A stretch of DNA of 63,999 bases, the filler included, from Chrysochromulina tobinii (lineage: Eukaryota), in assembly GCA_001275005.1 (NCBI GenBank). It is 5 parts of 5 records of this genome, joined end to end, with 100 filler letters (N's around TTAATTAATTAA, not from the genome) between each part and the next. Parts side by side here need not be neighbours in the genome. Positions count along the whole stretch, not along the records: positions 1 to 22,486 come from JWZX01000911.1; 4 more parts are not named here. One strand, written 5' to 3'. A program made the position numbers and the translations under genes. The notes beneath the pieces were generated by a model. That model had not been told where the DNA came from. It searched no databases and saw nothing but the letters and a program-made list of their open reading frames with translations. Each line of letters starts with the position of its first letter. Positions within the stretch are counted from its first letter, which is position 1. Below are positions 1 to 37,297 of the stretch, piece after piece.

Positions 1-461
1 GCGAGCGGTAGTGCGTAAACACAGCGGGTGCGTATACGTACCCCCTCGCGTATACACAGGTTTCTGCGTATACGCACCCCCGACCGCGTAAACGCAGGAA
101 ACGACAAACCGTAATGGCAAGACTTGAACGTTGAAGTCACGCATAGAACGGAGCGAGTATGTTCGGCATGTCTCTCGTCTCGCACAATCATCAACATCAT
201 CACAAGAGCCAGCGGCAGCGCGGAGACCGGAGTAGAGATGTTGACCGCTCCGGCCGCGGCCCGCGGGCGACGGGCGTGGGCCTCCGTGGGGCGACCGCGG
301 CGGGCGCGGGACCGCGAGCGAGAGCAGAGAGAGATCGCTTTTGTTTTGCCGTGCGCACTCGCGGGCGGGCCGGGCGCGCTCTCCAAGTGCTCATATCGTC
401 ATATTGCCTTGCCTTCGAAGGCGGTGCATCTAAAACTCATATTTCCTCTGTCCAATGCGTC

Positions 462-1345
462 TCACAGGCGATCCCGTTGGCCTCGTCGTTGCCCGTGCCC
501 CGTATGGACGCTGCGAGAATGCGTGAGAATCGAGACGCAAGAAACCGTAATGCTGTGTACTAACGAAGCAGGCCGAATGCAGGAGAGCCAGGTGGAGCGG
601 CGAGCGCACTTATTGGAGTGTCTCGCTGCAAGCCGTACAGAAACCTCCGTAGCCGGAAGCATCACGCCACCACGCTTGGACCGAACTGGCTTGCTCACCC
701 ACATGTTGGCGAGCTGGGGCGCAGACTTCGATTTTGGCATGAGCGGCGGCAGTCTGAGCGCGGGCCGGCTGGTCGCATCCGCGTAGAAGTGTGCAGCTTC
801 GGCATGCGCATGGTCAGAATCCACCTCTGATTCGTGCGACGTCTCAGCTTCCATCTTCCTCGTTATGGGGTCATCCATGTGCCATTTCGCCCGATACCTG
901 TTCATGAAGGCTTCCTCGCTCTGACGGGCCGCCCTCATGAGCTCCTCTTCCGCCGCTCTTGCTTCTGCCGCCTCCGCTACCCGCTTGGCTGTCTCCCTCT
1001 TGGACTCCTCCTCAGCTGCTGCCCTCGCAGCCCACTCCTCCTGCATTCGCATCGAGCGTTGCGTTGGCCTGCGGAAGGACCGACAACCAAGCTGGCTCAG
1101 AGAGAATTATTTAGGGAAAGGTAAGCAGAGTAGGCATGCATGCTTGCGCGCCTTACGGGTGATAAACGGGGGCAGTCTGCTCACCTGCCGTACGCCTCTT
1201 CGCGCTGGAGCCAAAGTGCTGCTGTGCGATCAGCGACGGCCACAGCTTTCTGTGCACGTGGCGCTAGAATCTTAATGTCGCAACCACGGTCGCAACTCGG
1301 TCGCGCCACGACTTCCATGCCTCTGAATCCACACACGATGTCCAT
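462..1345 (-). CDS. Hypothetical protein, at least 2 exons, charged coiled-coil segment
   Basis: ORF 1181-1558 joins ORF 462-1052 in frame through a GTGAG...CCTTCCGCAG intron at 1069-1184 (YGR|PTQRSMRMQEEW). Start and 3' structure uncertain. Confidence 0.5.
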
Positions 1346-2214
1346 GTCTTCGTGCACGCGAGGGCCGGGCTGCGCCGTGCGTTCTCGGCGACCGTCGCAG
1401 GGGTCACCGCCGGCGGCTCGTACAAAACGCTTGACTGCCTCGAGCTCAAACAAAATCAAGCGCCGTTTTGGGCCATTTTTTGCTTCGCTATTGGTAGATA
1501 CACATACAACAGTCCATATCATTAACCTTTGCATAATGCACCTTACACGATGCATCACCTTTTGGAGAGCTATTAGATGACATATCGAGATGACACACTG
1601 TTTTGCGTTTTAGATGTCTCCACTGAGAGTCTGAGACCTCGTCTGTGAGTACTGATCTCCGCAGAGAGCTCCACTGAGGACTGAGCTGTGCACTGGCGCC
1701 ACTGCGCACACGCACAAAGACAAGGACCACCTTCGAGGTCTCTGTCGTCCAGTCACCGAGCAGAGTCAGGGACTGTGGCTCTGCCCGGATACTTGCCCCG
1801 AAAAGGCAACCATGAACTCGTGGACACGAACATTTGGACAACCTCGATCATACGACGATGATCGGTAGATCGGTACTTACATCCATAGACAAGGTTACAG
1901 ACAACCACCACTATTCACACATGAACACATCGGTTGTGTCAACCTTAGACATCAAAGTCCATCCCACAACGGTGAATGGCAGCGTCTGGCCAGCACAAGC
2001 GGGCCCCCGAGCGCTCTTTCAAGCTCAGTGACCTCAGGGTTGGAGGCTGTCGGCTGACTCCAGCCACTCGACCACACGCACTGCGACAGACATAAGGTTA
2101 CATGTAAAGTCGACCGACTCACTCCAGACCGACTCACTCCACCCGACCTACAGAATGTAGCTCGATACCTGCCCTCGAACGAAGCATTTTTCACGGTTCA
2201 AGTCATGCTGAAGT

Positions 2215-4383
2215 TTAATAGCTGAAGTTGCCCTCGTACATGAAATCGCCTCCGCGGCACAGGCGAGCCATCTCTCTGCGGCACTGCTCCGTCACCGGGA
2301 AGGCACGCTGCAGCCGACCAGGCGGAGTGAATCGAGTATCTGATGTGGCACAGCAATGGCGTGAGTAAGAGAGGTTGATCCACTTCAATTCAAGCTCATG
2401 GAAGTATTTCGTCAACGTGGGGGTATAGGTTGGTATGGGTGAGGTATGGGTGAGGGAGCAGGCAGAGGATGAGGACCCAGACATATGTGGATGGAGGCAT
2501 GGAACATGGCGCGAGTCCGCGAGAAGGCAGAAGCAAATGTGATGAGGTCGCGTTGCACGACCGCGGGGCGTGGAGCGTTGGGCGTGCGCACAAAGGTTAT
2601 CATTCTTCCAGCCCGGTCGCAGTGAGCAGCCGAGTACGGGCCCTCCGAAATGCTGATGCATCATTTGGAGGGTGACTTGCGACCACGCCGAGCCAAACGA
2701 GCCGATCAGCGCGACGCCGTGCTGGGCGATCGCGAGGTTGAGGATCGAGTGCCATCCGATGTGATGGAGCATTTCGCGAGTAGAGCTGAAAGGACGTGCA
2801 GGGGACGGTTGCTCTGTACTGCTGTCGTCGACGCCGAGTCCTCGAGCTCGACGAGCTCGCGTTGCATCTGCCTCGGGTGCTGCCGAGGGTACCGATCGGT
2901 CACTCGGCCTGCTCGTGCGCGAGGATGACACATCGCCATCGCCTGCTGCAATTGGTGTGCCGTTGCGCGAGTTGGCGCCAAAAGCCATTTGCAGCAGCTT
3001 CTCACGCTGCTCTTCGCCGTATTGGTTCCGATAGTCACCCGGATTCCACGGGTCGATCTTGAGGTCAAAGCGGCGTTGGTCTGTCCAAAAGCAATTCCAG
3101 CTGCGCTGCTTGCACTCGGCGCTGAAATTGGCGACGACGGCGGCTGTCTCAGTGACCAGCAGCACGTGGCGCGTTCCGAAGCAAGTGGAAGACAAGAGCT
3201 TTGCCAGGGGAGGCAGGTACTGTTTGAGCAGCAGAGGCTTTTCCTCGACGTGCTTACCGCCCATACGCACGAGCACAACCACGAAGGGCTCCACCAGCAA
3301 GGTTCCATCGGCTTCTGCCACCGTTTGCGCATGGCGAAGCCGAGCGGATGTGGACAGCACGCCTGCTTGCGAGGAGGAAGCATCCCGACTTCCGCCTATG
3401 CGATGGCGACCAATTGAGCGACCACCTACGATGCGTGCCTCGCCGACCCGGCTGCCGCCGCCGCCACCGCCGCCACCGCCGCCGCCGCCGCCGCCGCCAC
3501 CGCCGCCGCCGCCGCCACCGCCGCTGCCGCTGCCACCACTGCCGCCACCGCCGCTGCCACCGCCGCTTCCACGGCCGCTGCCACCGCCGCCGCCGCCACT
3601 TTCGCTGCCGCCACCGCCACCGCTGCCGCCACCGCTGCCGCCTCCGCTGCCGCCTCCGCTGCCGCCTCCACCGTTTCCGTTCAACATGCCACGACTGCTG
3701 CTGAGCAGCCGCACGCCGTGCTCGTGCAGGAACTCAAGGGACGTTCGGTGCACCCACGGCCGAAACTTGAGGAGCACGTCCCAGCTCGCACCGAACCAAA
3801 AGCTGCGGCCGAGCGCCGGTATGCAGTGCATCCAGCGTGCGTAGAGCGCGAAGATGCCGAGGGAACGGTCGTCGTTGGCAAAGCTCAGCCGCACGACTGC
3901 ATGCTGAAGCGTTGCTTTGCCAAAGCTCGGAGCATCCCATTGCACAGGCGGTCGCCGACGAGTAAGAAAGTCGGCGATCAGATTTGGGTCGTCCTCGCAC
4001 GTCGACCAGGGCTCGAAGTAGCAGCCATGGGATTGTGGGCCTTCGTCGCACCATCGCCATGAGTGGCCACGCATGAACGCTGAGGTCGAAAGAAGTGTGC
4101 GATTCTCCGACATCGCCTGCAGTAGGAGGGCATGGAGAACAAGGAATGAGAAGCCCATGCCCGACTGCTCGTTGAATTCGTCCAGCAGCAGCACGCGTGA
4201 GTTGCTGCAATCGACAGGGTTCTGTGCTCTGTGTAGAGCATCAAGGAGGAGCGCCCTGTCTGGACCGTGCATAAACCAGTGACACGTGCCGTCGACGCCC
4301 TCGGCGGCGAGGCCGAGCAAGGGCTTGTGACGACCGACGCAGACGCAGCAGCAAAAGCCGAGCAGCGAGGCAATGCGCAGCAT
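2215..4383 (-). CDS. GT23/FUT8-like alpha-1,6-fucosyltransferase with a poly-Gly insert
   Basis: N-terminal signal/anchor; LHRAQNPVDC, GMG..., CYFEPWSTC, VLVRMGGK, LLVTET and IGSFGSAWS parallel the FUT8 motifs QNPKDC, VHVRRTDK, YLATDD, VCTFSS. An intron near the 3' end is probable but not resolved. Confidence 0.7.
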   Translation of the reverse strand: MLRIASLLGFCCCVCVGRHKPLLGLAAEGVDGTCHWFMHGPDRALLLDALHRAQNPVDCSNSRVLLLDEFNEQSGMGFSFLVLHALLLQAMSENRTLLSTSAFMRGHSWRWCDEGPQSHGCYFEPWSTCEDDPNLIADFLTRRRPPVQWDAPSFGKATLQHAVVRLSFANDDRSLGIFALYARWMHCIPALGRSFWFGASWDVLLKFRPWVHRTSLEFLHEHGVRLLSSSRGMLNGNGGGGSGGGSGGGSGGGSGGGGGSESGGGGGGSGRGSGGGSGGGGSGGSGSGGGGGGGGGGGGGGGGGGGGGGGSRVGEARIVGGRSIGRHRIGGSRDASSSQAGVLSTSARLRHAQTVAEADGTLLVEPFVVVLVRMGGKHVEEKPLLLKQYLPPLAKLLSSTCFGTRHVLLVTETAAVVANFSAECKQRSWNCFWTDQRRFDLKIDPWNPGDYRNQYGEEQREKLLQMAFGANSRNGTPIAAGDGDVSSSRTSRPSDRSVPSAAPEADATRARRARGLGVDDSSTEQPSPARPFSSTREMLHHIGWHSILNLAIAQHGVALIGSFGSAWSQVTLQMMHQHFGGPVLGCSLRPGWKNDNLCAHAQRSTPRGRATRPHHICFCLLADSRHVPCLHPHMSGSSSSACSLTHTSPIPTYTPTLTKYFHELELKWINLSYSRHCCATSDTRFTPPGRLQRAFPVTEQCRREMARLCRGGDFMYEGNFSY
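3452..3672. repeat. (GCC/GCT/ACC)n trinucleotide low-complexity tract encoding poly-Gly/Ser
   Basis: Directly visible. Confidence 0.9.
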
Positions 4384-4821
4384 GTTCTGTCTCTACGATT
4401 CGATTTTAGCAATAATCCTCAAGGTGGGTCAATATCCGGATAGGTCTCCACAGGTAAGAAAGGAAACCGAATGCATGCATAGACCCATATAGATTCCTTC
4501 CGAGAAATCCATTTTCTAAATTTCTGTCAGCCCCACAGCTAAATTTTTGTTTTGGTGAGCTTGATGCCTTGATCATTTTCAGTGATGGCAACCATTCCTC
4601 TAGAGAGCGAGCGCTGCGCAACAAAGACGTCCGTCGCTACACGGTACGGCTTTCAGCTGTAGACGTCTGTATGCGCTATGGTTGCACGTCGAGGTTACAC
4701 GGTGGCCGCCGCGATAGAAATTTTTGATGTGAATTTCAGAAAGCGCGCCGTGGCGGTGAGCCGCCCTCGGTCAAACCAAGACCCGCGTCCTCTCCTGTTC
4801 AATACACTGAGCCGAACCAGC

Positions 4822-7776
4822 ATGGCGGCCAGCAGCGCAGCTGACCCGTGGGCCCTGCCCGAGGACGCTGCCGCTAAGTACGATGCCTTCTTCACTATCT
4901 GCGCAAGTGGCGGCAGCCACGTCAATCGTACGCAGGCAGGGCCGCTCTTCGAGCGTGCGGAGCTGCCGCCGCAGCAGATGGCCATCATCTGGTCTCTCTC
5001 TGACATCGACCTCGACGGTCGCCTCAATAGTAACGAGTTCCGCGTGGCCATGCATCTTGCGACGCTCGCCGTGGCAGGGCAGCCGCTTCCTTCGCGGCTG
5101 CCTCCCGTACTTGAGCTCATCGCCCGTCCCCGACGAGCGAGCGACGAGCGATCCACGAGGATGACGACGCAGCCGCCCCATAGTCCCGAGACCAGTTCGG
5201 GCACGAACCTGATCGCTGACTCACGAATCACCATGTACAAGGTCGTGACCTCCGCGTTCGTCAATGCACAGGACTTGCTTGATCCGGGCGTGATTTTGAT
5301 GTGGATGGACATTGCGGCGTGCTTGGCAGCCGAAAGGCACACAAAGACGAGCTCCGTGACGCTCTCGATGGACGATCTCCACTTTGACACGATGGTGCGT
5401 CTCGGAGCGACCGTGCACTTGGAAGCGACGCTCCACAAAGTCTTTGGCACATCGATGGAGGTCGGATGCACCGTGTCTACATCGCAACCATCGGGCCGCG
5501 ACAAGTTCGTGTGCGCCGCATGCTTCACCTTCGTGGCGCTCGGTACCGACGGCAAGAAGATGCGCGTCGCCGAGGCGCTTGCAGTGACGCCCGAGGAGAA
5601 GTTTTTGTCGACGATTGCGACTGAGCGTCGCGCGTGGCGGCTGAAGCGCTCGGCGCTGGAGCTCGAGGCGCGCGAGGGCGCCGAGTCGAGCCAATCGCTA
5701 GACGTGGCCATCGAGGAGGATGCGGTGCTAAGCGGCGGTTGTGCCGCCGGTGGCAGCTGCTGTGAAGGCGGCGTGGAAGAAGCGGCGCCGACGCCCTTGG
5801 TGACCTACTCGATGACTCAACTCGTGCTGCCTAATATGGCCAACCACCACGGCAATACCTTCGGAGGTCAAGTGATGGCGTGGATGGCCGAGGCCGCGAC
5901 AGTCGCCGCCAACCGCCAGGCGTTCGAGTCGGTACCCGCCTCCCACCTCGGCGCGATCTCGCACGTCGAGATCGCGCTCGTGGATGCGCTACAGTTTCAT
6001 GCCAAGTCAGTCGTAGGCGATCGCGTCGTGCTGCATGCAAAAGTGACACGTGTCTTCGGCTCGTCGATGGAGATCTGCGTCACCGTCGAGGCGTACGGCG
6101 CGACCAGCACCGAGGTGCGCCAGCCCCAGCACGGCCTATTCACAGCACGGCCTATTCACAGCACGGCCTATTCACGACGACGCATGCGACCTTGAACCCT
6201 TCGCATGCCAAACCCAGCCCTCGTCCGCATCCAGGGGCGCCTTCTGATGGCCACTGATGGCCACTAATTGCATCCAGGGGCGCCTTCTGATGGCCACTGA
6301 TGGCCACTGATTGCCTCCCTCATTGCCTCCAGGTGCGTCACATCAACACGGGCTACTTGACGATACATGTGAAGGCCCAGAGGCGCCGAGGTGGGCGCTA
6401 CCTCGACCTGCCCCTGCGCCCGTCGCGCGCGCCACCCGCGACGGACTTGGATGCGCATGCGGCACACGCGGGGGCGCTCGTGCGTCTCCGCGTGCGTGTA
6501 CAGCGTCGCCAGATGCTCTCGTTACGCTCGGACGCAATGACGTGGAGCCCGTTGCTCACAGGTGCGCCCTGCGTCCGAGTGCCTCTAAGTGCCTCTCTAA
6601 GTTCCGCTGATGGCCTCTCTAAGTGCCGCTGATGGCACCTCTCTAAGTACTCTGCGCGATTGCTGACTCGCAAAGGAGCCCTGATGACCGCTGATGACCA
6701 CTGATAACCGCTGATGACCTCTGATGACCGCTGATGACCGCTGACTCGCAGAGGAGCTTTGCATTTGCAACGTGCTCGGGCTGCTCCGGGTGGTGGGCCA
6801 GCAGCCACCGGCCGTGCACTGGGAGGTCCTCTCGTTGACCTTCCCCGGGCAGGTACTCACCTGGACTCGAACCTGGACTCGAACCCGAACCCTAACCCGA
6901 GCCCGGAGACCCTGCCTGGAGACCCCCCTGCGGCAAATAGTTGATGGCCGCTGATGACCTCTGATGACCTCCCAGGGCAGATGGTGCGCCCTGATGACCG
7001 TTGATGACCGTTGATGACCGCTGATTATACCGCTGATGACCTTCCCCGGGCAGGTTGTGCGCCGAGGTTCGCTACCCTTTGACGGCTCGCTCAGCGCAAG
7101 CGACGTGATTTGCGTCGCGCATGCAACTGATCTCTTCGGGCGTGGCACGCATGCGCTCAAGGCGGTCACTGTCGTGCAGGCGAGCACGACGCGCACCTTC
7201 GCGGCGGTGACGGACCTGCAGCAGCGCGTGCGCTGGGATAGCCTCCTCGAGGCGGGCAAAGTCCATCGCACCCTTGATGAGAAGAACGCTCTCGTGTACT
7301 TCAAGATGAAGCCCCTCATTACGGGCGGCCGACCACATGACTACACGTTGCTGCAGTCTTGGCGGCGGGAGGCGGACGGCAGCTACGTGATTGCATCTCG
7401 CTCGGTGGTGACTCCCGAGCTGCCCCCCGTGCGCGGCTGCACGCGCGGAGCGGTCCTCCCCTCTGGGTTTCAGTTAGAGCCTCTGGACGACGGGCGTACG
7501 CGGGTGACGTACATCGTCCAGATGCAGCAGCAGCGCGGCATCACCGGCGCCTTCGGCTCGGCCATCCTGCGGCGCGGCGCCGAGCTCATGCGGCGCAGGT
7601 TCGTGCTGCTCGAGGAGCTGCTGCGCACGGAGGCGGCGCCCAAGACGGCGCCGACTGCGAGCTGGGCGCCGCGCTGGGGCGCTCGCGGCTCGGGCATTTC
7701 GGCCGTACCCACGCCCGCGCCCGTGGCGCTTGAATTGATGATGCCGGGCGCGGCCGCGAGTGCGACGGACCAGTAG
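4822..7776 (+). CDS. EH domain + two hotdog acyl-CoA thioesterase domains + START domain (ACOT11/12-like); exons 4822-6114, 6333-6561, 6752-6852, 7054-7776
   Basis: EH: IIWSLSDIDLDGRLNSNEFRVAMHL. Hotdog motifs WMDIAACLAAERH, FGTSMEVG, ANHHGNTFGGQVMAWM, FGSSMEI. START: RVRWD, YVIASRSV, RGAVLPSGF, TRVTYIVQ. Three GT-AG introns restore the frame. Confidence 0.8.
6115..6332 (+). other. Spliceosomal intron with a 16-bp x3 repeat and TGATGGCCAC minisatellite
   Basis: GAG|GTGCGC ... TGATTGCCTCCCTCATTGCCTCCAG|GTGCGT; splicing gives TE|VRHINTGYL. Confidence 0.8.
6562..6751 (+). other. Spliceosomal intron with TGATGACC(G/A/T)C minisatellite
   Basis: ACAG|GTGCGC ... CTGACTCGCAG|AGGAG; splicing gives LLT-E-ELCICNV. 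Confidence 0.75.
6853..7053 (+). other. Spliceosomal intron bounded by an exact 19-bp direct repeat
   Basis: TGACCTTCCCCGGGCAGGT at 6836-6854 and 7037-7055; internal 10-bp minisatellite. Confidence 0.85.
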
Positions 7777-8275: not shown

Positions 8276-11200
8276 ATGCGCGTAGCGTTCATGGATGCGT
8301 TGTCGCTGCGGGGCCGCAAAGCCAAGGCTTCACCACCACCAGACATCGCTCTGCCGGCGACCACGCCAGCCTGCGCCGAGCCACAGACCATGGCATCGCA
8401 ATTGTTACAAGGCGCACTGGATAACGAGTTGACCAGCACGCTCGTCCTTGCGCGGCAGCACTCAACAATCATGGACGAGTCAGTCGACGAGGCTAGGAAC
8501 CTCGCGCCGGATCCGCATCGGCGCGAAACAGGAGTGGCCGTGGAGGCCGCGAGATGGGTTGCCGCACTCACGGGCGCTGCACTGCCCCAGGCGGTGGAGG
8601 ATGGCGACAAGGTGCTTGATAGCCTACACGAGTGGCTGCGCGACGGCGTCATCCTATGCCGCCTCGCTCATCGGCTCGGCGCGATGCCGAGCCTGCTGCG
8701 CGCAGAAAGCAACGGCAGCAGTAGCAGCAGCGGCGGCGGCTGCAGCAGTAGCAGCAGCGGGAGCGCCAGCAGCAGCGGCAGTGGAAGCGGCAGTGGCAGC
8801 GGCAGCGGCAGCGGCAGCGGCAGCGGCTGCAGAAACGGGAGCGACGCGCTGCACAAGGCCAAGAGCCTCGACCGTATCTCCCAGTTCGTTGAGGCGTGCC
8901 GCAAGCTAGGGATGCCTGAGCCTGACCTCCTATGCGGAGCCGACCTCGCCGAGGGCAAGAACATGCAATCGGTCGTGCGCAGCCTCCACTCGCTCGGGCG
9001 CGTCGTGCAGCGGCTCGACAGCTACGAGGGCCCCACGCTTGGCGTCAAGCTGGCTGTGAAGAATGAGCGCTCCTTCACAGCGCAGCAGCTCGCCGAGGCG
9101 CGGGCGATGCCCACGAGGCTCGGGCGCGACCAAGCGGCCGCGGCGAAGGCGGCGGGCGGGCCTGGCCTCGTCTCCGCCCCTAGGCAAGTCTCCTCTGGGG
9201 TCGGAGGCTGGGGCTCACCATCCTCGTCCGTATCGGAGGTCATCTCGGAGGTCATCTCGGGCTCACCATCCTCGTCGGTACATGTGGTCTCACCGTCAGT
9301 CATCAGTCTGGAGCCGCCCTCATCGCCGCAGACAGCTGCGCCGGGGACGATACAGAAGCTGCACGGGCACAAGGGCAGCCGGTCGGTGGAACCAGCGGAC
9401 GTGACAAAGCAGTCGGAGGCGATACAGATGGGCCGGAGTCAAAAGATGGCCTTCGAGCAGAAGCGCGCGGCCTTCGAACGCTCGATGGAGCCAAGTGGAG
9501 ACGAAGCAGGCGCCGTGACGGGCGCGCCAGAGGCCGGCGCGATGCCGCCGCCGAGCGGCGGTCGTATGGCGCTCGGTACGGCGCGCAACTGTCGAGGGAC
9601 GGCCGAGCCCGCGCCGTACCGAGCGCCCACGCCCACCCCGGCCGTCCTGTACAGTCGTCCTCATATGTCGCCCATGGAGCGCAGGGAGATGCGCCATGGG
9701 GCAGAGGCGCTCGCCGGGGAGGTCTCCGCCAGGGCGGCGCAGCTGCTGCAGCTCAGGCCGGCGACGCTCGATGAGCTGCCCGAGCCGCGAGAGCCGGCCC
9801 CGCTCAAAGTCTACTCGCGCTCCATGCATGGCGCCATGCATGCACGGGCCCTTCCGCCGGTGGCTGCCGTAACCTCAACGGCTGCCGTAACCTCGAAAGC
9901 TGCCGTAACCTCCACGGCTGGGACCCCATCGCTGGCGGCGCCCCCGCCCCGTGCAAGAGTGGATGTGACGCCTTTCTCAACGAGCGCGCCGGTGGCTGCA
10001 ACGGCGGCGCCGACTGCGCCGGTGGCTGCAACGGCGGCGCCGACTGCGCCAGCGGCTGCGACTCTTTCGCTCGAGGAGGAGTCCGCGGCGGTGGAGGGGG
10101 CAGCGGAGGCACCGGCGGCGGATACGGAGGTGATGATGGCGCCGGCGAAGCACCCTGCCGAGGCGGAGGCACAGATCATCTCGGAGGTAATCTCGGACCC
10201 TGCCGAGGCAGAGGCACAGATCATCTCGGAGGTAATCTCGGACCCTGCCGAGGCGGAGGCACAGATGATCTCGGAGGTAATCTCGGACCCTGCCGAGGTG
10301 GAGGCACAGATGATCTCGGAGGTATTCTCGGGGGCGCGGGAGCGAGTGGACCGGATGCGAGCAGCCCCAGTCCCGGCTAAGACGCCCACGACGCTGCAAG
10401 CCATGAGCCCGTGCAAGGATTCGCGCTCGGTGCTGCGCTTGGAGCTCGAGATCGTAGCGAAGGAGGCGAAGGAGGCGAAGGAGGCGAAGGAGGCGGCGGC
10501 GGAGGCGGAGGCGGAGGAGGTGGAGGAGGCAGAGGAGGAGGAGGCGGCTGCAGCTACTACAGCCTTGCCGCCGCCAACTGCCACCTGCAATGCAGCACCC
10601 TGCGACTCAGAGCCTGCCAAAACCGAGGCCATCGCTCCATGGCTGGTCGTGTCGGCGGAGGCGCTTGAGACGGCGCCCGACGCGTCCGACGCGCCCTTGC
10701 GGCCTTCGGCAGCGGAGCGACAAGCGCCGTCTCAAGCGCCCTCGGGGGAGGCAGGCCTGAAGCGATCGCCAGTGCTAGCTGAGACGGCAGCTACGAAGGC
10801 CACTTCAACGGCGGATCAAGTGACTGTTGAAGCATCAGAGGTTGCTCCGAGAGCAGAAGACGCTCCGAGATTACCTCCGAGATTACCTCCGAGATTACCT
10901 CCGAGATTACCTCCGAGATTACCTCCGAGATCACCTCCGAGAGCAAAAGACGCCATCGACCTCGCCACGGCCCCCAAAACTTCAAGCTCCGCTGCGGCAG
11001 ATTCTCGTGCCAACGCCACAGCTTTGTCAATTGCTTCGTCGGTGAGCACGCCGCCGGCCGGCCCCGCCGCTGCTCCGTCGTGTACCGGTACGCTGCCAAA
11101 GACAGCCCCACAGCCATCGCCGAAGACGCCCCCGCAGCTGCCGCCGGACGTGCAGCAGCCAGTCGCTCGTCAAGAGAGCCCTGCCGAGCGCGCGGTGCGT

Positions 11201-12575
11201 CTCTCTGGCGAGCGGCTTGAGTTGCTACACTCGTCTCGCTCGTCACGGCGCTTGACCCGTAGAGCTTGTGGGGACTTGAGCAGCCAGGGCAGTGGGGACT
11301 TGAGCAGCCAGGGCAGTGGGGTCTCGAGCAGCCAGGGCAGTGGGGTCTCGAGCAGCCAGGGCAGTGGGGTCTCGAGTGGCCAGGGCCTGGGCTCGCCGCG
11401 GCGGCTGCCCTTCAATCTCGTGACCCGAGATCGCCCCTCGTGGAACAATCATTCGACCCAAGATCGCCACTCACCGAGCTCTGAGCAACTTGAGTCGCCG
11501 ACGGGACGGCCCTCGCTCCCACCGCCGGCGGGACGGCCGCTCTCGCTCAAACCGCCCTCGCTCCCGCCGCCGCTGCCGACAAAGGTGCTCCCCTCGCCAG
11601 CGGCAACGCCACAGCCGCCAACGACAGCTTGGGAGCCGATACTCCCCCCACCGATACTCCCCCCACCGCCGACACTCCCCCCATCGCCGATACTCCCCCC
11701 ACCGCCGCATTTAACGGCCGCACTGACATCGTCGTCGGTGCCATCGGCGCAGTGGAAGGAGCCCTCAATTCGATTGGCACTGCCATTGGCGCCCCCTGCG
11801 CCATTGCCGCCAGTTGCAACGGCGGGAGAGGCGTGCGGCGTGACGCCGATGGCAAAGTTGCCGACGCCAACTATGGCGGCGGTCACGGCGCAAAGGTCCC
11901 CATCACCATCACTCGCTACGCCAGCCTCTTTACCGCCTCAGCCATCTCCACCACGCGTCCCGTCAACACCGCTGCCGCTTGAGCGACCACCACCACCAAG
12001 CCTCATGCCAGCATTGTTGCCGCTCGAGCTACCACCTCGCGCGACGGCGGGCGGGACGGCGCTCGGGACGGCGCTCGGTGCCTCGGAGGCGGCAGATGAG
12101 GATCTCGCCGATCAGGATCTCGCCGATCAGGATCTCGCAGATGAGGATCGACGAACGGCGAGCGTCCAGAAGCTTTGCGACGCGTCGGCGGCCGACATCT
12201 CGACCCTGTACACAGTGCAGGACCTGCTCGGCGAGGGCCGCTTCTCCAAGGTCTATTCGGTCGTGGAGGAGGCGACTGGGCAGGTGCTTGCGCTCAAGGA
12301 GCTCGACAAGGGCGCGATCGTTGAGGATGAGGAAGGCCTCGAGATGCTCGAGGCGGAGGTGCTGGCGCTGAAGCGCGCGGGCAATGCACCGCACGTCGTA
12401 CGGCTCCAAAAGGTCATCGCCTCACCCGATGCCATCTATCTCGCCATGGATCGCGTGCCCGGCCGCGCGCTCGTCGACGTGATAGACGAGCGCGGCGCGC
12501 TCGAGTGCAGCTACGTGCGCCACCTGATGCTGCAGCTGCTCACGGCTTTGGCGGCGCTCGCCGAGGTCGGCGTGG

Positions 12576-13528: not shown

Positions 13529-13918
13529 CCAGAGGTGGGGCCATGGAGTGTGAGCCCACCTCGCGTGATCCCGTGTAAGTAAGTAAGTAACTCACGCCTA
13601 TCGGCAGCGTACACGTGGCGAGAGCCCACCTCGCGTGATCCCGTGCAACGCCTGATGAGCCCGCTGTGCGACCACGGGACCTGATGATCATGTTTTGCCG
13701 TAAGTACTCAGAGTGATGACGAGACTTACTCAGATCTCAGTAGAGTGCTGTCTTCTGGGACTAGGAACTGTGCATATTAGTGTGTGCTGGATATGCAGTG
13801 AAATCACACTTCACGGGAGGGTGGTGCTGCGCTGACGGTCGTTAGCGGGACCCGGCACGAGCGCGAGCGTGGCTGTGATTCCTGCAGCTTCCCTCGGATG
13901 ATTTTATACAACAACTCG

Positions 13919-16847
13919 CTACCCGCGCGTATCACCGCGCGCCGCGGCGGCTCGGGTCACCGACGCAGTCGCCACGGCGCGTGCGGCAGGCGAGTGCAGC
14001 AGCGTCGTAACCTCGCGCGACGCGACGACCTTGCGCGCGGCGCGGCAGCCAGCGGAGTACTCAAACTGTCGCAGCGCGCTGCTCAGCGCTTGGCGGGAGC
14101 GGGCACGCCTCTTAAGCGGATGCATGCGCATGTCGACGCCCTCGCACCGGATCGCCGCGGCTTCATTGGCGGCGGCGGCTACGTCACCGAGTCTCGCGTC
14201 CAAGAGCACGCTCGCGAGCTCGGCTGCATCGAGCAGGGCCTGGTTGGCGCCTTGTCCTTTGAATGGTGCCATCGGGTGCGCCGCGTCGCCGATGAGGGTG
14301 GTGCACGAGGCGAGCCCAGATTGCATCTCGTCGCGCGAGATGGCGCCGTCGCCGTTGAGGGTGGCGGCGCTAGCCAGCATTGGCGGTGCTGGCCCCTGCG
14401 TTGGCGGCGCATGCAACGAAGTCGGCGGCGCACCCTCAACGGCGCGCGGCATGGCCGTTGGAAGCGAGGCCATCAGAGGTCATCAGAGGCCATCAGAGGT
14501 CATCAGAGGTCATCAGAGGCAATCAGAGGTCATCAGAGGCAATCAGAGGTCATCAGAGGATGACGATCACCTGCATGGCCGTTGGAAGCGAGGCCACTGA
14601 CGCCGCGGAGGCCGGCAGCGCTCCACCCGGGGTCGGCGCTCGATACGGCGCCCCTAAATAGGCAGGTGGTGCTCGATACGGCGCTCCTTCCGGAGGCACG
14701 GGTGCTGCTGCAGCCGCGCTCGAGACGGCGCGCTCATACGGACTCAGCCGGTCGTAGATTGGGTAGCCCGTCACGTCGTTGGCACGTGTGGCCGCTAGCA
14801 GCGCGTGCACCGCAGGCGAGCACCATGCGCTACAGCGCTGCCGGGCCTCAGCGAGCAGAGCCCCGCCGCCGCGAGATGAGAGCTCCCGCGCCGCCTCCTC
14901 GGCCATCGGGAATGAGAACTGCCACATGGTGGCGCTCGCCATGTCGCTCGTCGTGTCGCTCGTCGTGTCCACGCTCGCATCCGAGGCCACGCCCGCGCGC
15001 TCAAATGGCATCGCGTACATCCGATTGGCGCCATCGACCCATTCCACGACAGTGTGCGCGTCGAAGAGCGACGTGACGTGCGACGTAACGTGCGACGTGC
15101 TGGGCGCCGTGCTGGGCGTCGTGCTGGGCGTCGTGCTGGGCGCCGTGCTGGGCGCCGTGCTGGGCGTCATCTCCTCGGCCTGCGCTCGCAGGGCGGCCGT
15201 TGCAGCGATGCCGAGGATGACGATCACCTGCATGCAATGAGGGAGGCAATCAGAGGTCATCAGAGGCCATCAGAGGTCATCAGAGGATGACGATCACCTG
15301 CAACGCGCGCAGCGGCGCGCTGTCTGCCTCGCCGCTCTCCTGCACGAGTGCCGCGCGCACTGCGGACCGAATCCCATCGGCACCGACGAGAACCTTTGCC
15401 CGGACGGTGCGGCAGGTAAGCGGCAGTGGCGCTGCCTCCTCTGCACCCTCTCCATGGCCGCCGATTGCCACTGATTGCCTCTGATTGCCTCTGATTGCCT
15501 CTGCACCCTCTCCATGGCCGCCGTGCTGTGCTTGATCGCGGTACTGCTCGACCGTCACTTGGACGATGTTGCATGGCCTGGTGGACGCCGCCACGCCCGC
15601 CGCCGCCACGCCCGCCGCCGCCACGCCCGCCGCCGCCACGCCCGCCGCCGTCACGCCCGCCGCCGCCTCGCCACACATCTCTTTCTCATCATCAGGAGCC
15701 GCCTCGTCCAAAGGCGTGACGCTGATTGCATCGCTGATTGCATCGCTGATTGCATCGCTGATTGCATACTGATGATCTCCCTCATCAGGAGCCGCCACGT
15801 CCATCGGCGCTTCGCCGCTCGACCCTTCCCTACGCACACGTGCCCCGCGGAACCGGAAGCCCCAGCGCACCGTACCCGGCGACAGGCCCGCGTACAAGAG
15901 CGCGCGCAGCGACTGGCGTGGAAGGTGAACCTGTGGGGAAGTGGCGCGCCGTGGTGAGCACGTGCATGCAAGGCGTACAAGAGAGCTCGCAGCGACTGTC
16001 GCGGGAGGTGCACATTTTGCTTGTGTGCTGCCGTCGAGCCCGCCCGCTTGCACTGTGCCGCCATCGAGCCCGCCGCCGGCGCGCCACTGGCGGAGGCCAC
16101 GCCCGTGCACGCGCTCTCGGCCGCAGCCGCCGTCCCGTCAATTGCCCTAGGAGCCTCGATGGGTTGCTTGCCCGACGCCAAAGCCAAAGCGCTGTCGACT
16201 CGCGTCGCCGCGTCAGGCGCAGCGGCGCGCGTGGCGGCGCCATGGCTGCCAATCAGAGCGCCGGAGAGCGCGTCGAAGGAGTAGTGTGCCGTGCTGTGCA
16301 GCCCGGCCGTCGTGACCGCCTGCGTAAGCCCAATGGCGCGCAGCGCGGTACCCCCCTGCTGCATCGTGAGCCCGTAGCCCTGACTGCGCTCGCCGATCGA
16401 CTTGTCACGCTCGTACACGGCGCATCGCACCCCTCGCTGCTGCAGAGCGAGCGCTAGCGCGAGGCCTCCGATCCCGCCGCCGATGATCGCGACGTCCACG
16501 GACTCGATGACCATGCCGTCCGCTGGAAGAACACGGCCGCCATTCTCTGCACCGCCACTTACCTCGTTGGCGTCGGCACTTTGGACCGCGTCGCCGCGCT
16601 CCGCATCTGAAATCGGGCTCCGAAGCATCAAGCCACTGCCGCTGCAGGCCGAGCAAGGCACCATGGGCGGCGGAGTGGGCGGCGCAGTGGCGACTTTGCG
16701 CTTCTTTTGATGAGGCACCTGGCCCGTGCCATGGCAAGCGACACAGCTTCGATAAGCAGGGATCGCAAGTTTGCACAGGCGAACCCATTGGGGCTCGTGC
16801 TGACTAGCTGCAAGAGCTGGCGCGTCGCTCCACGCTGGCGACGCCAT
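13919..16847 (-). CDS. FAD-dependent monooxygenase with N-terminal CxxCxGxG zinc finger; introns 15931-16013, 15228-15297 and about 14396-14570
   Basis: IIGGGIGG, VYERD, LVGADGIRSAVR and LIGDAAHPMAPFKGQGANQALLDA spread over four ORFs joined in frame by GT-AG introns; CVACHGTG and CSACSGSG at the N-terminus. Confidence 0.8.
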
Positions 16848-27416: not shown

Positions 27417-27718
27417 TGATTTTGTATCTCGGTATATCTTGATGTATCTTGATGAAGAGTCCAGGATACATGTACATGTATCCTGATGTATCTTGATATG
27501 TACATGTATCCAGTGTGACACCTTTTAGTGACACCAAGGAAGCGCGCAAGATACATGTATCTTGATGTATCTGATATGTATCCCCTATGTGTACTTGTAT
27601 GTGTATCTTGGACTCCTTTAGGGTAGGGAGATTCAGGTTACGTGTAGAATAAATGCAAAACATTGAGATACATGTAAGATACGTGTATTCTCTTCCAATG
27701 TAACAGAGCATGTAAGAT
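27417..27718 (+). repeat. Solo internal fragment of the GATACAT-rich transposon family
   Basis: Colinear with about 30847-31110 (shared TGATGAAGAGTCCA, GTGACACCAAGGAAGCGCGCAAGATACATGTATCTTG, TAACAGAGCATGTAA). Confidence 0.85.
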
Positions 27719-29959: not shown

Positions 29960-31193
29960 ACAGTCAGTATGACGGTGCGGATGGAGGCGGCGTTGATGCG
30001 GTTCCAGCGCGCCTCGGCGCTCGGGCGGTGTGGGGGAGTCGAGAGGGTACAGTACAGTATACTGTAACCGGGAACAGTATATACGGGGTCGACCTTGTAC
30101 GGCCACGAACTAGGAATTAGTGTTTCGTCACTAGGACTACGTACGCAATCTCCGTATTATAGTCACACCGCGCGCTACACGCGCCCCCGTGGGCGTTCAC
30201 ACAACACACACCTCGTCAGCACTCACGTGCTCTCCTCACCTAGAGGGATCGGCATCCTCGCGCAGTCCCCACGGCGCGACCAAAGGGCAGGAGGGCGACG
30301 CACGCGTCGGACCCCCCTACACACTAGCCAACACACAGGGGGGTCAGGGGGGGTTTCTTCTCCTTTTGGGGGGGGGCTCCTATCGGATACGTATCCTGAT
30401 GTATCTTGATGTTTTCTTGATGTATCCTGCATGTATCCAGATACATGACACACAAGATACAATCACGATACAAGTCAGATACATGCGTGATACATTTAAA
30501 GATACACACAAGATACGTATATCGAGCCCTACTTGCGACCGCGCTTGGATACCCCCAAACCCCCGAGATACGTGTCCCGCATGTATCCCGCATGTATTCC
30601 GCATGTATCCCGCATGTATCTTGATTACCTCTGAGGATACATGTATCTCGCATGTATCCTGCACGTATCCCGCATGTCTCCTTCATATCAGATACATCTC
30701 TCTCTGGATGCATTTGAGATACATGTATCTCATCATGTATCTTGGATGTATCCCGCATATATTTTGATCACCCTTGCAGATACATGTACCTCGCATGTAT
30801 CCCGCAGATACGTACCTCGTCATGACGCGTCCAAGGTACATGTATCATGATTTTGTATATCGGTGTATCCTGATGTATCACAAGATGTATCGTGATGAAG
30901 AGTCCAAGATACACGTATCCTGATGTATCTTGATATGTATCCAGTGTGACACCAAGGAAGCGCGCAAGATACATGTATCTTGTTGTATCTGATGTCGTGA
31001 TGTGTATCCCAAAATGTATACATGTAATGGACTCCTTTGGGATACGTGTAAAACACATGCAAAATGTCAAGATACATGCATTCTCTTGGAATTAACAGAG
31101 CATGTAAAGATACATTTGAGATACATCTGGAAACACTCAACGTGTATCCTTCAGGATACATGCAGGCCACCATAGGCGCCCAGATAATGACCC

Positions 31194-32310: not shown

Positions 32311-32951
32311 AGGTATGTCGAAATCAAGATACAATCAAGATACATGTACTTGTACATGCAGGATACATCAAGATACATCCAGATACGTATCCGATAGGAA
32401 ACTCCCCCCCCCCAAAGGATAGGAAACCCCCCGTCACCCACACACAGGGTACGAACGCGGCACGGCTCCAGTGACGGTAGTCTCAGTCCTCCTCACACTC
32501 TGTACTCTCTCAGCAGCCGTTCGGTTGAGGGCGGGCCGCGCCGGGTGGGCAACCAAGAATGGGCGGCTGCTGCGCTCCCACCTTCGGACCAGACGCGCGG
32601 CACCCGCGATACATGTAACCGCGACGGTCTACGCGGCTCGACGCGTACAGCGGTCCCAGTACCACAACACATACAAGATTATAAATCGCGCATTAAATCG
32701 CACATGGCATGGCCCAACACCTCTCAGACACACACCTCCGCGGACCGAGATCGAAACAGGGGCGGGATGCCTAGCAGGGGCGGGTATCTCGATGGCTGAT
32801 GCTGTGTCCATTCCCACACAGTCCGGTCGCACCGCATGATCGCTTCGAAGAACCCGTGCTCAGATGCCACCCGCCCTCGCGCAGCTCCAGTTGCACAGCA
32901 CCACTCGCCTCACCCCTGCGAACTCACTATCTCGATCTCACCCCTGCGAGC

Positions 32952-35900
32952 TCACTGCTCGGCTGTGCGCCCCCAGTAGAAGAGCCGTGAGCGCATCTCC
33001 TGGAAGAAGGATCCCGAGGCCGAGGCCTCATTGTACACGAGCGTCGATGCCTCGGGCTCGTCGAGTTGGGCGATGGGCTCATCAGAGGCACGGCGATGGC
33101 TGGCATTTCGCATATCTGGCGCATCGGAGGCATGGCGGCTCGGAGCAATCAGTTCACTCGCCTCCGACCGCCTCGATGCCTGACGACTCGGCCGCAAGGA
33201 AGCTGACGCCTGCCGGCTCGGCAAGAGCGGCAGCGCACCGTTCGTGGCGGTCGCGGAGCGGGAGACGGGCAGGCCATTCGAAGAACGGCTTCCCCCTTCC
33301 CCCTCGGTGCCTGGGGGCGTCCATTGGAGCCACGGCCAGTGGCCGTCCAGTGGCCGAGTAGCGGAGACCCCACGGCGGACAAGAATTGCCGACGGCTGCC
33401 GACTCACCGACGGCATTGCCGACGGCTGCCGACTCACCGACGGCATTGCCGACGGCTGCCGGCTCACCGACGGCATTTCCGACGGCTGCCGACTCACCGA
33501 CGGCATTTCCGACGGCTGCCGACTCACCGGTGGCGAGCTCATCGATGGGACGGGCTGCGAGCTGGACTGCGAGTTGGAACGTGTCGGACGAGGCGGCAGC
33601 GCCGCGTTGGAATCCATCGCCTTGTGCGCCTGGATGATCGCCTTGAGGGCGCGGTTGGGCAGCAGCATCTCCGATGCCAGCGACTGTCGCGACACAGGCG
33701 AGCGAGGTACCCGCCCCTGCGAGCGTTCGTGCCGAAAGTAGCTGAGGATCCCCTCGCGCTCGTACGTGACGCCGTCCATAGCGATGACGGGATCCTCGAT
33801 CGTACAGAGGGTGAGCGGGCACAGCAGCGCCTCCGCCATGTACTGCTGCGGGTTCGTGATCACGATCGCGTCATCCGCCAGGCGACGCTCCTCGGAGAGG
33901 TCGGCGGCCTCGGGTCCCTCTGCGGCGAGGACGGCAGCGAGGATGATGTCGATGAGACCATCCGAACGCGGGTCGGCGTCGAGCAAAAGGTGTGTCGCCC
34001 GCCGCTCGCCACGCCGCATCTTTCGCACCGCCTCCGTGATTTCCCAACCGCCCTCTTCCTCCATCTTGAGAAAGCCCGCCTCGATCTTCGCCCACCCATC
34101 CTCGTCATCGGCCCCCTCGGTGATGAGCCGTACGAGGGTCTTGATGCCGAGCTGCACATGCAGTCCCTTGGCGTGGCCTTCGAGGTGCACCTGCGGTGGG
34201 TAGTACCGCTTGGCGGACTCGCACGCGCACACGTAGCGCCAGATGTGCTCGATGAGCGTCTGCGTATTGCCGTCTCCAGGGGCCGTCGCCACCAAGTTCC
34301 AGATCGCGCGCTCGCCCTGCCGCATCGCGTTGACCGCATCCTTGATTTTCCAGCCCGATCCGACCAGTGCGTCGATGGCGAGCACGACGTCTGACACGTG
34401 GGAACCCGCGGCGCGGTCGCCGACGAGGATGTACGCCGTGAGCAAGGCGAGCATCGACTTCTTCTCCCCCTCCTCCTTGATGAGCGCCTTGGCCTGCCCT
34501 TTGATGGGTAGCTTGGGGACCGGTAAATGTGCTGGGTCAAAGTAGCCAATCTGGCTCGGCTTGAGACCCACTAAGTCACGCCCGACACCCTCCAAACCCT
34601 CCACACCGCCCAGCGCGGCGCGGAGGGCACCCTCCACACCGCCCAGCGCGGCGCGGAGGGCATCGTGGTCGAGGGCGCCGTCGGCGCTGAGGGCGTCGAG
34701 GTCGACCCCCATCGCGGCGCGGAGATCGCTGAGAGGGTCGCTTCCAGCGAGGTGCCTCGCCATCGCCTCTGCCATCGACTCCACGTCGGGCCGTTGGTAA
34801 GCCGCTTCGCCAGTCGCGATCGCCGCTGTGGGCACCGCATCTGGAGGCTCTTCCCCGTCCAGGAGGCTCGTCAGGAGGTCCATGCCGTGCACCGACGCCA
34901 CCAACCCGTCGAGAGTGGCCACACGCGCCCGGAGCACGTGGGCCTCACGTCGGGTCTGCTCGCGTGCAAGCACGAGAGGCGCGCCCGCCTCCATCGTGGC
35001 CACCGCGATGGCGTTGTACCGGTCATGCCCGCCGTCAAAGCCGCGCTCATTCCAATGGTAGTCTCGGGGGTGCGACGGAGGGTCGGGCAGCGGCAGGAGG
35101 CGGATGAGAGCGCCGCCAACACTCCCGTACAAAGCCTCGGTCATCGCACCGCGGCCGCCGCCGTCCGTCACAGCATGGACCAGGACTGTGAACGATCGGG
35201 GACCCCCGGGGGCATGTGTGACCTGTTGCGACGCCATCGCCAAAGGGCTGAGGTCGGCTTCGTCACGACTCTGTCGCTCTAGGTCGACCCGACGAGGCGG
35301 CGCCGCCGCTGTGGCGGCGAGCAGGGTTGGAGTCTCGCGGCGCACGACCACGACGACCTGGTTGCGTGTGAGAACGTGCTCGAGATGGCGCGCCTCCTCC
35401 TCCGTCTGGGCCCGTGCGATGAGCCCGAGGCCGTTGGCGGTGATGCCTGAGCGCGCAGGGTGGGCGTGGGAGTGGGGGCGTTCGTGAGAGAGCATCCAGG
35501 GGAGATCAGGGGAGGTCAGGGGAGATCAGTGGAGGTCAGGGGAGCTCGCCACGCACCAGCGCGCATCTCGAGCATCATTTCGCCACTCGTGTGCCAACCA
35601 CGATCTGGCCACGTCAGGGAGGCTCCGCTCGCATTCGTCCCTATGGCATTGATCACCTGCATCATCGCATGGGCAACGTCAATCGCATAGGGTCAGATCC
35701 AGGGAGATCCAGGGAGATCCAGGGAGATCCAAGGAGATCCAAGGAGATCCAAAGAGATCTGGGTAAATTCAAGGAGATCCGGGGAGATACATGGAGATAC
35801 AATGAGATCCTAGGAGATCCAAGGAGATCCACGGGAGATCCACGGGAGGTCATCTCACGGGCTCCGCCGCAAAATGTCAAGGAAGACATGGCAAAGGCAT

Positions 35901-37297
35901 TCCGAAGAACGCCCGAGGCGCGCGTTGCGCAACGTATGGGCACCTTGGGGAGCGAGCATGCGCAGAGAGCATGGGCACGCGCGTGCACGCACCTTTCGTT
36001 CCGTCTCGCTGCCCGGTGTCGCGACGGTGGTTCGCACGTACACGCAATACTCACGTGCCGTCGCCACTAGCGTGGGCGCTGGCGTGGGCGTGGGCGTGGG
36101 CGTGGGCGTGGGCGCGGGCGCTGGTACCGGCACGGGCGGCGGCGCCGGCGCGGTGCCAGCCGAGGGCGGTGGCGGGGCATCGGCTGCGGAGGGGGTGAGC
36201 TCATCGAGGTCGAATGCATACCACGAGTTACTTACTGAAGGGAACTCGACCTTCACTAGCCCATGGGAGAGCACACGGCGCACGAAACCGACCGTCGAGT
36301 GGTCTACCCCATCGGGCCAATCGCAGCGAGGGCGCTGCGGCCACAACAAAGGGGGCAAGTGGCGGACGAGAGTGAGCGAGGCGCGGGCGAGGCACGAGGC
36401 AAAGGGAGTGGATGGGAGGTGTGAATGTGAACGTGAGGAGTGCAGATGGGTCGCAGCTGGCGTACTCACCTCTAGCCCGGGGCGTACTTGTACGCAGACG
36501 CCGACTTTGATGGTGGAGTCGCCGTCCCACGCCTCGAGCTCATCGGGCGCAGCTTTCCACGTGCCCACAGAGAGCGGGAAGGCCACAAGCACGGTCGTCA
36601 CCCGAGCAGATGGCGCCGCCGCCTCGAGAGCGAGCGTGAGCGCGCCGAGCAGGTCCGACTTTTCTGCGAGACCCGCGAGCGGCACGCCGCGCGCACGCAG
36701 CTCGGCCTTGAGCTCGCGCACGCTGAGCGAGGCCGCGCGCTCGGCCGAGAGCGCCGGCCGCGCCTGCCCGGCCGTGCGCATGCCAACGATCCGCCCGACA
36801 GCGTGCCGATGGTCTTCGAGATTCCCCCAGCCACCACGGGGCCGGTCCAGGCCCGTTCGAACTCGAACGGCCGATCCGATCCGCAGACCGTCGTCGCCGC
36901 GTCGCAGCACAGCGTCTGGCAGAGTGTAACACAGGTTTTCTGCGGAAGGGACGACCTCCAGCTCATTGGCTCGGCAGTTCCAACTACCTTGGCCGACGGA
37001 CTCAAAGGCGACCTTGCACTCATCCTGCTGATTGCGGCTCCGCAGCACGCCGATTTGGTCGTGGGTCACGGCCCCCCAACCAAACGATGGACTTGTCACG
37101 TCCTGACGCACCCTCACCACGACTCCAGGGATGAGTTCGGGCTGCAGGCGCTCCGGATTGTCGTCGAGGTCCCTGCAGTCTTCGTCCGTCCCAAGCATGC
37201 CGAGCGCGCGCCCGAGGTCAGCCATGCCGCCTTCCGGACCATGCGCCTCCCCATGCGCCTCCATCAGCATGCGCAAGAATGGAGCAAGCTCCTCCAT
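32952..37297 (-). CDS. U-box E3 ligase with N-terminal KEG/Mind-bomb-type SH3 repeats and a SAP-like motif; multi-exon
   Basis: Repeats VRVRQDVTSPSFGWG and VRVRTGLDRPRGGWG; SAP-like LSVRELKAELRARGVPLAGLAEKSDL; U-box LLCPLTLCTIEDPVIAMDGVTYER...SPVSRQSL...LLPNRALK; introns 36335-36469, 35447-35556, 35657-about 35860 and probably one near 35945-35990. Confidence 0.7.

Follow-up and report, generated by a model that had tools for sequence, protein, structure and literature searches.

The thioesterase gene and its three introns

The window analysed here is a 63,999-nucleotide stretch of Chrysochromulina tobinii DNA in which five contigs are joined by N spacers, and all coordinates are window positions. 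A gene on its plus strand (4822-7776) combines an EH domain, two HotDog (4HBT) domains and a START domain, and its product is an ACOT11/12-like acyl-CoA thioesterase of a haptophyte, belonging to the Chrysochromulina parva cluster. Exon 1 (4822-6114), which has RNA coverage, encodes the EH and both HotDog domains and exon 4 (7054-7776) encodes the START domain; exon 2 (6333-6561), which agrees with the reference model P0095, and the 101-nt exon 3 (6752-6852) lie between them. The exons are separated by intron 1 (I1, 6115-6332, 218 nt, phase 0), intron 2 (I2, 6562-6751, 190 nt, phase 1) and intron 3 (I3, 6853-7053, 201 nt, phase 0). Removal of these three GT-AG introns gives a predicted product of 781 amino acids. 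P0095, a gene model labelled Chrysochromulina parva and found in the 90% cluster of exon 4, has three junctions identical to those called here, which points to C. parva or a freshwater haptophyte nearly identical to it.

In all three introns, copies of the intron's own splice junctions surround a shared 10-base satellite, as an earlier note on this DNA had observed, with the copies of I2 restricted to the acceptor side. I3 is bounded by the exact 19-bp repeat that had been described, copy 1 (6836-6854) being the source of the donor and copy 2 (7037-7055) that of the acceptor. The first six bases of copy 2 continue the satellite, which spans 6942-7040. The decayed third copy lies at 6962-6990 and additionally includes the first 10 nt of exon 4, and degenerate telomere-like hexamers occupy 6868-6905. 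Over 29 nt, I1 opens with sequence similar to the start of exon 2, in line with the earlier claim (anchored score 24; p = 0.004 in comparison with 250 coding positions sharing the first two bases), and its interior holds 16-mer and 43-mer duplications together with the 10-mer satellite. I2, with its satellite at 6681-6744, contains the suspected dead acceptor as an 18-bp copy with one mismatch (6662-6679, compared with the live acceptor at 6740-6757). Its duplication is confined to the acceptor side, exon 3 begins with AG and not GT, and I2 bears only a weak resemblance to the exon 2 end (p = 0.024). The dead acceptors of I2 and I3 are second events within existing introns. The 3' motif said to be shared between introns occurs three times in the window, at 6308 (+), 15252 (-) and 50804 (+), spanning 6308-6323 in I1; it is present in three window introns and in one coding insert (15.7k, see below), and absent from I2, I3 and the others.

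Splicing was examined in six RNA runs, all in contig form. The joint in an X13 contig skips the 218 nt of I1 from GT to AG with 231 bases on the short side, and a loose end of an X16 contig continues from exon 1 into exon 2. A single X17 contig (depth 4.4) skips the 190 nt of I2 and the 201 nt of I3, with short sides of 27 and 23 bases, respectively, and in X13 a loose end at 6561 runs into exon 3 for its first 7 bases. The RNA check proposed earlier thus finds the junctions of all three introns spliced, I2 and I3 by one contig, and the excision at GT..AG is that of U2 spliceosomal introns. I3 is kept in contigs of X13 and X14. An X17 contig leaves out exon 3 (492 nt skipped, 6562-7053), resulting in a frameshift and a stop after residue 516. 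X17 is a strain of about 96-97% identity to the window and was seen as RNA only.

The same introns are found in four assemblies (99.97% identity) and in three strains (97-98%), wherever covered. The three strains differ in unit number, as the 43-mer is absent from I1 of L027 and I2 of L030 is longer by 20 bases. An assembly artefact was ruled out, since four assemblies and three strains share the introns with altered unit numbers. No intron-less allele of I1-I3 was found among seven same-species loci. At the 5' end of the gene, the EH-domain segment (4790-5127) shares 95-99% identity with the beginning of a separate EH/EF-hand protein (P0011, P0012, P0019) and L027 lacks it, making it a recent, polymorphic domain fusion. 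Positions 1-4789 have no match to the DNA upstream of the thioesterase gene in L024, L025, L026, L029 and L030, and the contig may be mis-joined or rearranged at the EH repeat, where the switch lies.

Relatives read through the I1-I3 sites with one copy of the duplicated segment, the result for which an orthologue comparison had been suggested. In a quick version of the tree, the window protein groups with P0007/P0009 (support 100) and then with P0008 (98). The I1 site is empty in P0008, L032, L033 and L034, the I2 site in P0008, L032 and L033, and the I3 site in P0066, L032 and L033. P0066, 80% identical to exon 4 and located on a contig that agrees with that of P0007 in length and source, reads across the I3 site with a single copy of the segment and an AG|GC-compatible junction, and P0008 (56% identity) is continuous through the I1 and I2 sites. 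All three introns are absent at the DNA level in L032, where the whole gene is one open frame, and in L033, and in members of the P0013 and P0014 clusters the gene is continuous on 16-48-kb contigs. The intron-bearing relatives (P0007, P0008, P0009/L031, L033, L034) have introns at positions of their own, and the reading frame of P0007 terminates in a stretch whose peptide suggests a translation of the same 10-mer satellite. Wherever a relative could be read across one of the three positions, that position is unoccupied. The introns are real and lineage-specific, in support of the earlier note, and gain is the simpler reading of these sequences.

Recurrence in neighbouring genes and relatives

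A 13-42 bp duplication combined with satellite filler is found again in two genes nearby, where it forms introns as well as in-frame coding inserts: five events lie in a minus-strand monooxygenase gene and three in a kinase gene. The process is not intron-specific, as it also yields coding inserts, and the earlier interpretation is not fully supported in this respect. The monooxygenase gene carries the 14.5k event (14449-14596), a 24-bp duplication around filler with a predicted intron from 14570 to 14435 or 14396; the predicted 15.2k intron (15213-15302; 70 nt, 15297-15228) with an exact 20-bp junction repeat; and the predicted 16.0k intron (15889-16013; 83 nt, 16013-15931), which opens with a 42-bp copy of the next exon and takes its acceptor from non-satellite filler. 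Its two other events are in-frame inserts of antisense satellite, the 15.46k insert (15438-15523, 26-bp duplication, 60 bp) and the 15.7k insert (15689-15803, 22-bp duplication, 93 bp), the latter ending in the shared intron 3' motif. The kinase gene on the plus strand holds three in-frame inserts, with an 18-bp duplication around 12-mer filler at 9211-9276 (48 bp), a 19-bp duplication around 12-mer filler at 10845-10953 (10.9k, 90 bp) and a 13-bp duplication around 15-mer filler at 12092-12149 (12.1k, 45 bp). On another contig, a predicted satellite intron of 219 nt (50604-50822, plus strand; 50.6k) contains a decayed copy of the next exon start (p = 0.048) and the shared 3' motif, and a further intron in L024 has a 25-bp junction repeat with a third copy in the middle, as in I3. 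Among the RNA-contig joints listed, none corresponds to the predicted 14.5k, 15.2k or 16.0k introns, and the 16.0k filler is present unspliced in one X13 contig.

The source of one filler was identified. Over its first 60 bp, the 14.5k filler agrees at 59/60 positions with the 5' part of the 15.2k intron, 727 bp away, and the matched stretch includes a 15-nt tag, acquired by the 15.2k intron from its own exon, that occurs only three times in the window. The joins of the 14.5k event show microhomology of 7 bases on one side and 3 on the other. Therefore, the 14.5k filler was copied from the neighbouring intron's DNA or unspliced RNA, which argues against telomerase or a fixed element for that event. 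The repeat pool invoked earlier is supported, the fillers coming from a shared pool and in this case from an identified neighbouring intron.

Two monooxygenase events also have empty alleles in close relatives. The 16.0k intron and the 15.46k insert are absent in P0076/P0077, with one copy of each repeat there, and P0072 is an allele without the 15.46k insert only, again a single-copy empty site. P0076 and P0077 are genomic because both read into the 15.2k intron, which has the same position and a different filler in them and is absent in P0079. The allele P0073 reads through the 16.0k site in frame (81 nt). The 42-bp copies of the 16.0k intron encode the same 14 residues with 7 differences, all at third codon positions, a pattern unlike a neutral intronic copy; a diverged allele or paralogue as the source is one possibility.

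These alleles bear on the suggestion that the introns are old, that their ends were remodelled by duplications and satellite, and that the relatives lost them. The 15.2k intron, common to P0076/P0077 with a different filler, speaks for it, as do the dead acceptors of I2 and I3, which are such late events, and the I2 donor, which lies outside any duplication. We nevertheless regard it as very unlikely: the three thioesterase positions are vacant in every relative readable across them and the introns of the relatives sit elsewhere, the sister and outgroup rows of the tree are empty, the repeats of I3 and of the 15.2k intron extend to either side of the junction, as expected of a single insertion, and P0066, P0076 and P0077 weaken it further.

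In marine relatives the filler differs. The orthologues L033/L034 contain three introns with 15-, 16- and 21-bp junction repeats around telomere hexamers, and the telomere-filled intron of L034 is absent from L033 (86% nucleotide identity upstream). A telomere C-strand hexamer array contains CTAAC, the core of the U2 branch site. The telomere hexamer serves as filler in L033/L034 and in part of I3; the 10-mer is distinct from the haptophyte telomere repeat, TTAGGG (PMC3622300, available text). Register with the repeat at the priming end is seen for the 10-mer and amounts to 0, 0 and 2 bases in the three telomere-filled introns. Taking all introns together, the proposal that a duplicated AG|GT supplies both splice sites stands for I1, I3, 15.2k, 50.6k and L024 and fails for I2, the 16.0k intron and one intron of L033 (L033a), in which one splice site is supplied by the filler.

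Other repeats were encountered in the window and in related loci. Four 45-bp coding units in the kinase gene (10152-10331), each with 12-mer filler, are probably an insert amplified later. L028 carries in-frame kinase inserts missing from the window kinase at L028:3532 and L028:4821 (window 8617 and 9855), one of 15 bp (9-bp duplication plus 6 bases) and one of 75 bp without duplication. In L024, an intron at 4100-4450 contains about eight tandem 26-bp units, each with an acceptor-like CAG, and inverted telomere-like repeats cluster at the contig start (150-620). Between convergent gene ends of the window (13560-13645, minus strand), a 24-bp direct repeat with AG|GT, 70 bp apart, surrounds ACTT-repeat filler. 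A second family of 10-11-bp arrays lies in lower-GC DNA (27423-27610, 30391-30686 and 32322-32386), and two introns of a U-box gene (35657-35992 and 35446-35556, minus strand) contain a variant 10-mer with no clear junction copy, possibly as older products of the process.

A scan of GTDB returned 17 loci (L104-L120), of which L110 and L119 look like eukaryotic contaminants. L119 (970-1095) holds an intron of the same satellite family in a 1.4-kb algal fragment contaminating a Gemmatimonas metagenome-assembled genome (MAG), and L110 looks alike. The other 15 of the 17 look bacterial and carry short arrays of a closely similar 10-mer; they fall in Verrucomicrobia, Bacteroidota, Cyanobacteria and other groups. 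A search of five of the genomes with GTDB matches found no additional algal contigs. When viral contigs were scanned, the pattern had 23 chance matches, in contigs of 46-54% GC, the longer pattern had none, and the RFC query gave none.

Chance tests and the proposed break repair

Arrays were defined by rule (n = 14; 12 in the window, one in L024 and one in L119), and repeats were sought between their 70-bp flanks. An exact flank repeat of at least 10 bp was found for 8/14 arrays (p = 5e-8), or seven without the satellite-internal match of 50.6k, compared with 4.6% of 1472 random placements and 2.7% of 182 cross-paired flanks. I3 is not counted because its first repeat copy lies further out. 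In a junction-copy test on 10 introns, six had a copy at p < 0.05, and direct repeats that place adjacent-exon sequence at the other end of the intron are above chance, as in Daphnia-type gains. At the filler 3' end, the 10 events have a total of 37 bases of microhomology, compared with an expectation of 8.7 (p = 2e-4 with a leave-one-out pool), and six of them have at least 4 bases. The comparison with chance called for in the earlier note, carried out here on about 73 kb, places the flank repeats and the 3' microhomology above chance, but not the 5' microhomology.

Orientation and frame may separate the two kinds of product. CTRAY words occur on the filler strand only in 7/7 ten-mer events; in the intron fillers this is the sense strand, in agreement with the CTGAT-like signals noticed before, and the words are candidate branch points. 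The ten-mer fillers have stops in all three frames on their own strand in 6/7 events, so sense inserts would have to be spliced or lost. The five unspliceable coding inserts with measured repeats all have lengths that are a multiple of 3.

We propose, with a probability of roughly 60%, that I1-I3 are products of staggered-break repair, each combining a 13-42 bp exon duplication with fill copied from satellite already present in other introns. We infer that one 3' end at a staggered break was primed on satellite, that the ends were joined and the gaps filled, and that the products were then sorted by orientation and frame. Offset nicks or a stalled fork would expose a 3' end, which would anneal to satellite over 4-8 bases and be extended, the strand made reading AGAGGTCATC. 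Rejoining of the ends would then need hardly any additional homology, if any, and the stretch between the nicks would be duplicated as the gap is filled. Sense filler, with its CTRAY branch-like words and stops in three frames, would be kept only if spliced, the splice sites coming from the duplicated AG|GY or from a site carried in by the filler, while antisense or 12/15-mer fillers would persist as in-frame coding inserts. Repeat events in young introns would give rise to dead acceptors (I2, I3) and altered unit numbers. Existing introns would thus serve as templates for new introns.

The earlier note had favoured template switching by microhomology-mediated break-induced replication (MMBIR) or a DNA polymerase theta (Pol theta)-like enzyme. 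Microhomology above chance agrees with this, but it is found on the 3' side only (p = 2e-4, against p = 0.18 on the 5' side). Symmetrical two-switch MMBIR predicts microhomology on both sides and one is seen; the better fit is a staggered break with a primed fill, whose template may be DNA or RNA, although the two-sided test is conservative, as the templates of several 5' joins are not known. An insert copied from a nearby locus, as expected of MMBIR or fork stalling and template switching (FoSTeS), is found in one case (14.5k from 15.2k).

As for the type of template, its nearby position fits DNA with a Pol theta-like enzyme, and the polarity fits RNA. An RNA template would mean that a reverse transcriptase (of a non-long-terminal-repeat or Penelope-like element, telomerase or Pol theta) was primed at a nick on satellite-bearing pre-mRNA, in which case the duplication would be a long target-site duplication (TSD) and the filler a 5'-truncated cDNA. 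Relative to the satellite strand, the microhomology is at the 3' end of the filler regardless of host-gene direction (the 15.46k and 15.7k inserts being antisense). The shared 3' motif turns up repeatedly, RNA contigs bearing the satellite are very abundant, and the polarity of the telomere filler in relatives is as expected of telomerase. We still judge this origin unlikely, with no poly(A) tails in the fillers read, the sole identified template only 727 bp off on the same DNA, and a one-sidedness based on 10 events (6 against 1 with at least 4 bases). Of the two marks of non-long-terminal-repeat retrotransposition (TPRT), variable long TSDs and a common 3' end, the variable repeats are present, and the 3' motif is limited to the loci named above.

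The microhomology could also be the chance seed of a plain tandem duplication, from which the satellite later grew by local slippage. Strains do differ through slippage, and the 10.9k and 12.1k matches arise only if the event's own unit is allowed. Such an origin is nonetheless highly improbable in view of one satellite family and 3' motif at unrelated loci on three contigs, of the six events that hold 4-8 bases of microhomology in the leave-one-out pool, and of the 14.5k filler, demonstrably copied from another locus.

Several points weigh against staggered-break repair as we propose it. All counts come from about 73 kb, and the events were picked for having repeats. The 5'-side microhomology is 10 bases against 6.9 expected (p = 0.18, or p = 0.036 if the event's own unit is allowed), 4/10 introns have no junction copy (the two U-box introns, L119 and L031), and the in-frame class owes part of its definition to the open frame itself. 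The synonymous-only differences between the 16.0k copies do not fit simple gap filling, and none of the four telomere arrays in neighbouring genes of L035 has a repeat longer than 7 bp. The I2 and I3 joints rest on one contig of low depth (about 4), in which their short sides measure 23-27 bases, and the X17 strain may carry an intron-less allele at I2/I3. Most empty sites are known from predicted proteins rather than DNA, P0079 sits on a 1.2-kb contig that may be a transcript, and the I1 site is out of reach in the closest sister, P0007, which ends earlier, and likewise in P0009.

Relation to known systems and meaning for haptophyte introns

Intron gain by staggered double-strand break repair is described in Daphnia pulex (PMC4202315; PMC3443670). 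To judge from the accessible text, the two systems share new introns that are flanked by a direct repeat of the adjacent exon and absent in close relatives or alleles (here P0066, P0008, L032, L033, P0076 and P0077), and later internal duplications in young introns. In Daphnia, the junction repeats measure 4-12 bp and occur in 33 of 90 new introns, with AT-rich inserts (PMC4202315, available text), whereas here the repeats are 13-42 bp, one GC-rich satellite filler is shared, a template is identified and coding by-products occur. A 2012 review counts five gains unambiguously assigned to break repair (Table 1 of PMC3443670). The introns formed by AGGT tandem genomic duplication in the same review are similar in that the duplicated AG|GT gives both donor and acceptor with the protein unchanged (I1, I3, 15.2k and L024), but they are described there as wholly duplicated exon, while here only 13-42 bp are duplicated and the rest is foreign filler with branch-like words.

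Mammalian interstitial telomeric insertions (PMC7215372) resemble our events in the simple repeat placed at a break, the register at the priming end and the target that is sometimes duplicated. The filler of the marine relatives is the same hexamer, and that of C. parva is mostly the 10-mer. In the available part of that paper, duplication is rare, being the sole change at 3/66 horse loci, the human insertions are not in exons, and none is described as intron-making.

Introners (PMC9860276; PMC12130899) likewise provide many related new introns per genome and co-opt a splice site from the target duplication. The introns studied here might accordingly be taken for a decayed family of such non-autonomous transposons with long, variable TSDs. 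A shared 3' motif in three introns would suit this, and a marine Chrysochromulina MAG has Introners with 4-bp TSDs and without terminal inverted repeats (TIRs), according to the accessible text of PMC9860276. Membership in such a family is nevertheless extremely doubtful. Seven introns of 70-219 nt have an end-to-end identity of 29-64% (21 pairs), no TIR exceeds 5 bp, the longest end complement being 3-5 bp in 7/7 introns, and the repeats vary from 13 to 42 bp, in contrast to the fixed TSDs of 3-9 bp given in that text; the lack of TIRs and of a fixed length noted at the outset thus stands. Moreover, one filler bears host-exon sequence of a neighbour, and other lineages use other filler. Unlike Introners as presented in these sources, our introns vary in length and ends, resemble one another little over their full extent, and show long duplications of variable size and host-derived tags moved between loci.

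Pol theta end joining, MMBIR/FoSTeS and plant paired-nick repair copy a nearby template by microhomology priming and duplicate the flank. To our knowledge, these templated-insertion pathways are known for leaving mutational scars, not for producing introns recurrently. The microhomology found here, being one-sided, is closer to end joining than to two-switch replication. In Emiliania huxleyi, introns are reportedly enriched in 10-11-bp tandem repeats, as Read et al. are said to have found in 2013.

Calcidiscus is intron-rich and has interstitial telomere tracts, which the available text does not link to junction duplication or intron creation (PMC13518057). No description of the present design in haptophytes was found in the literature, subscription papers (e.g. 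the Emiliania and C. parva genomes) and supplements not being covered, and the accessible portions of PMC4580454, PMC13518057, PMC3622300, PMC8379373, PMC8226300, PMC10288648 and 10.1101/2024.05.26.595999 do not describe it. [quoted passage not shown]

The process, which works like Daphnia break repair joined to AGGT duplication, is a variant of break-repair intron gain as in Daphnia, new in its traceable shared filler, and not an Introner. The creation of introns is real, above chance and well supported at the small scale studied. We tentatively suggest, as a possibility that we hold to be more doubtful than the repair itself, that haptophytes run a transposon-free, self-feeding intron factory, in which repeats are copied from existing introns (possibly from their RNA) with lineage-specific filler, the 10-mer in Chrysochromulina and the telomere hexamer in marine relatives, and which would be the main ongoing route of gain. 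Outside Introner bursts, most new introns have no traceable source. Here, about 73 kb of one cultured, sequenced alga brings together the duplication, the filler, a template, empty alleles, spliced products and unspliced by-products. Both the source of intron sequence and the selective filter (orientation, frame and branch word) are open to a genome-wide test with existing C. parva/C. tobinii data, and the process may explain the repeat-rich introns of haptophytes and the low-complexity loops of their proteins.

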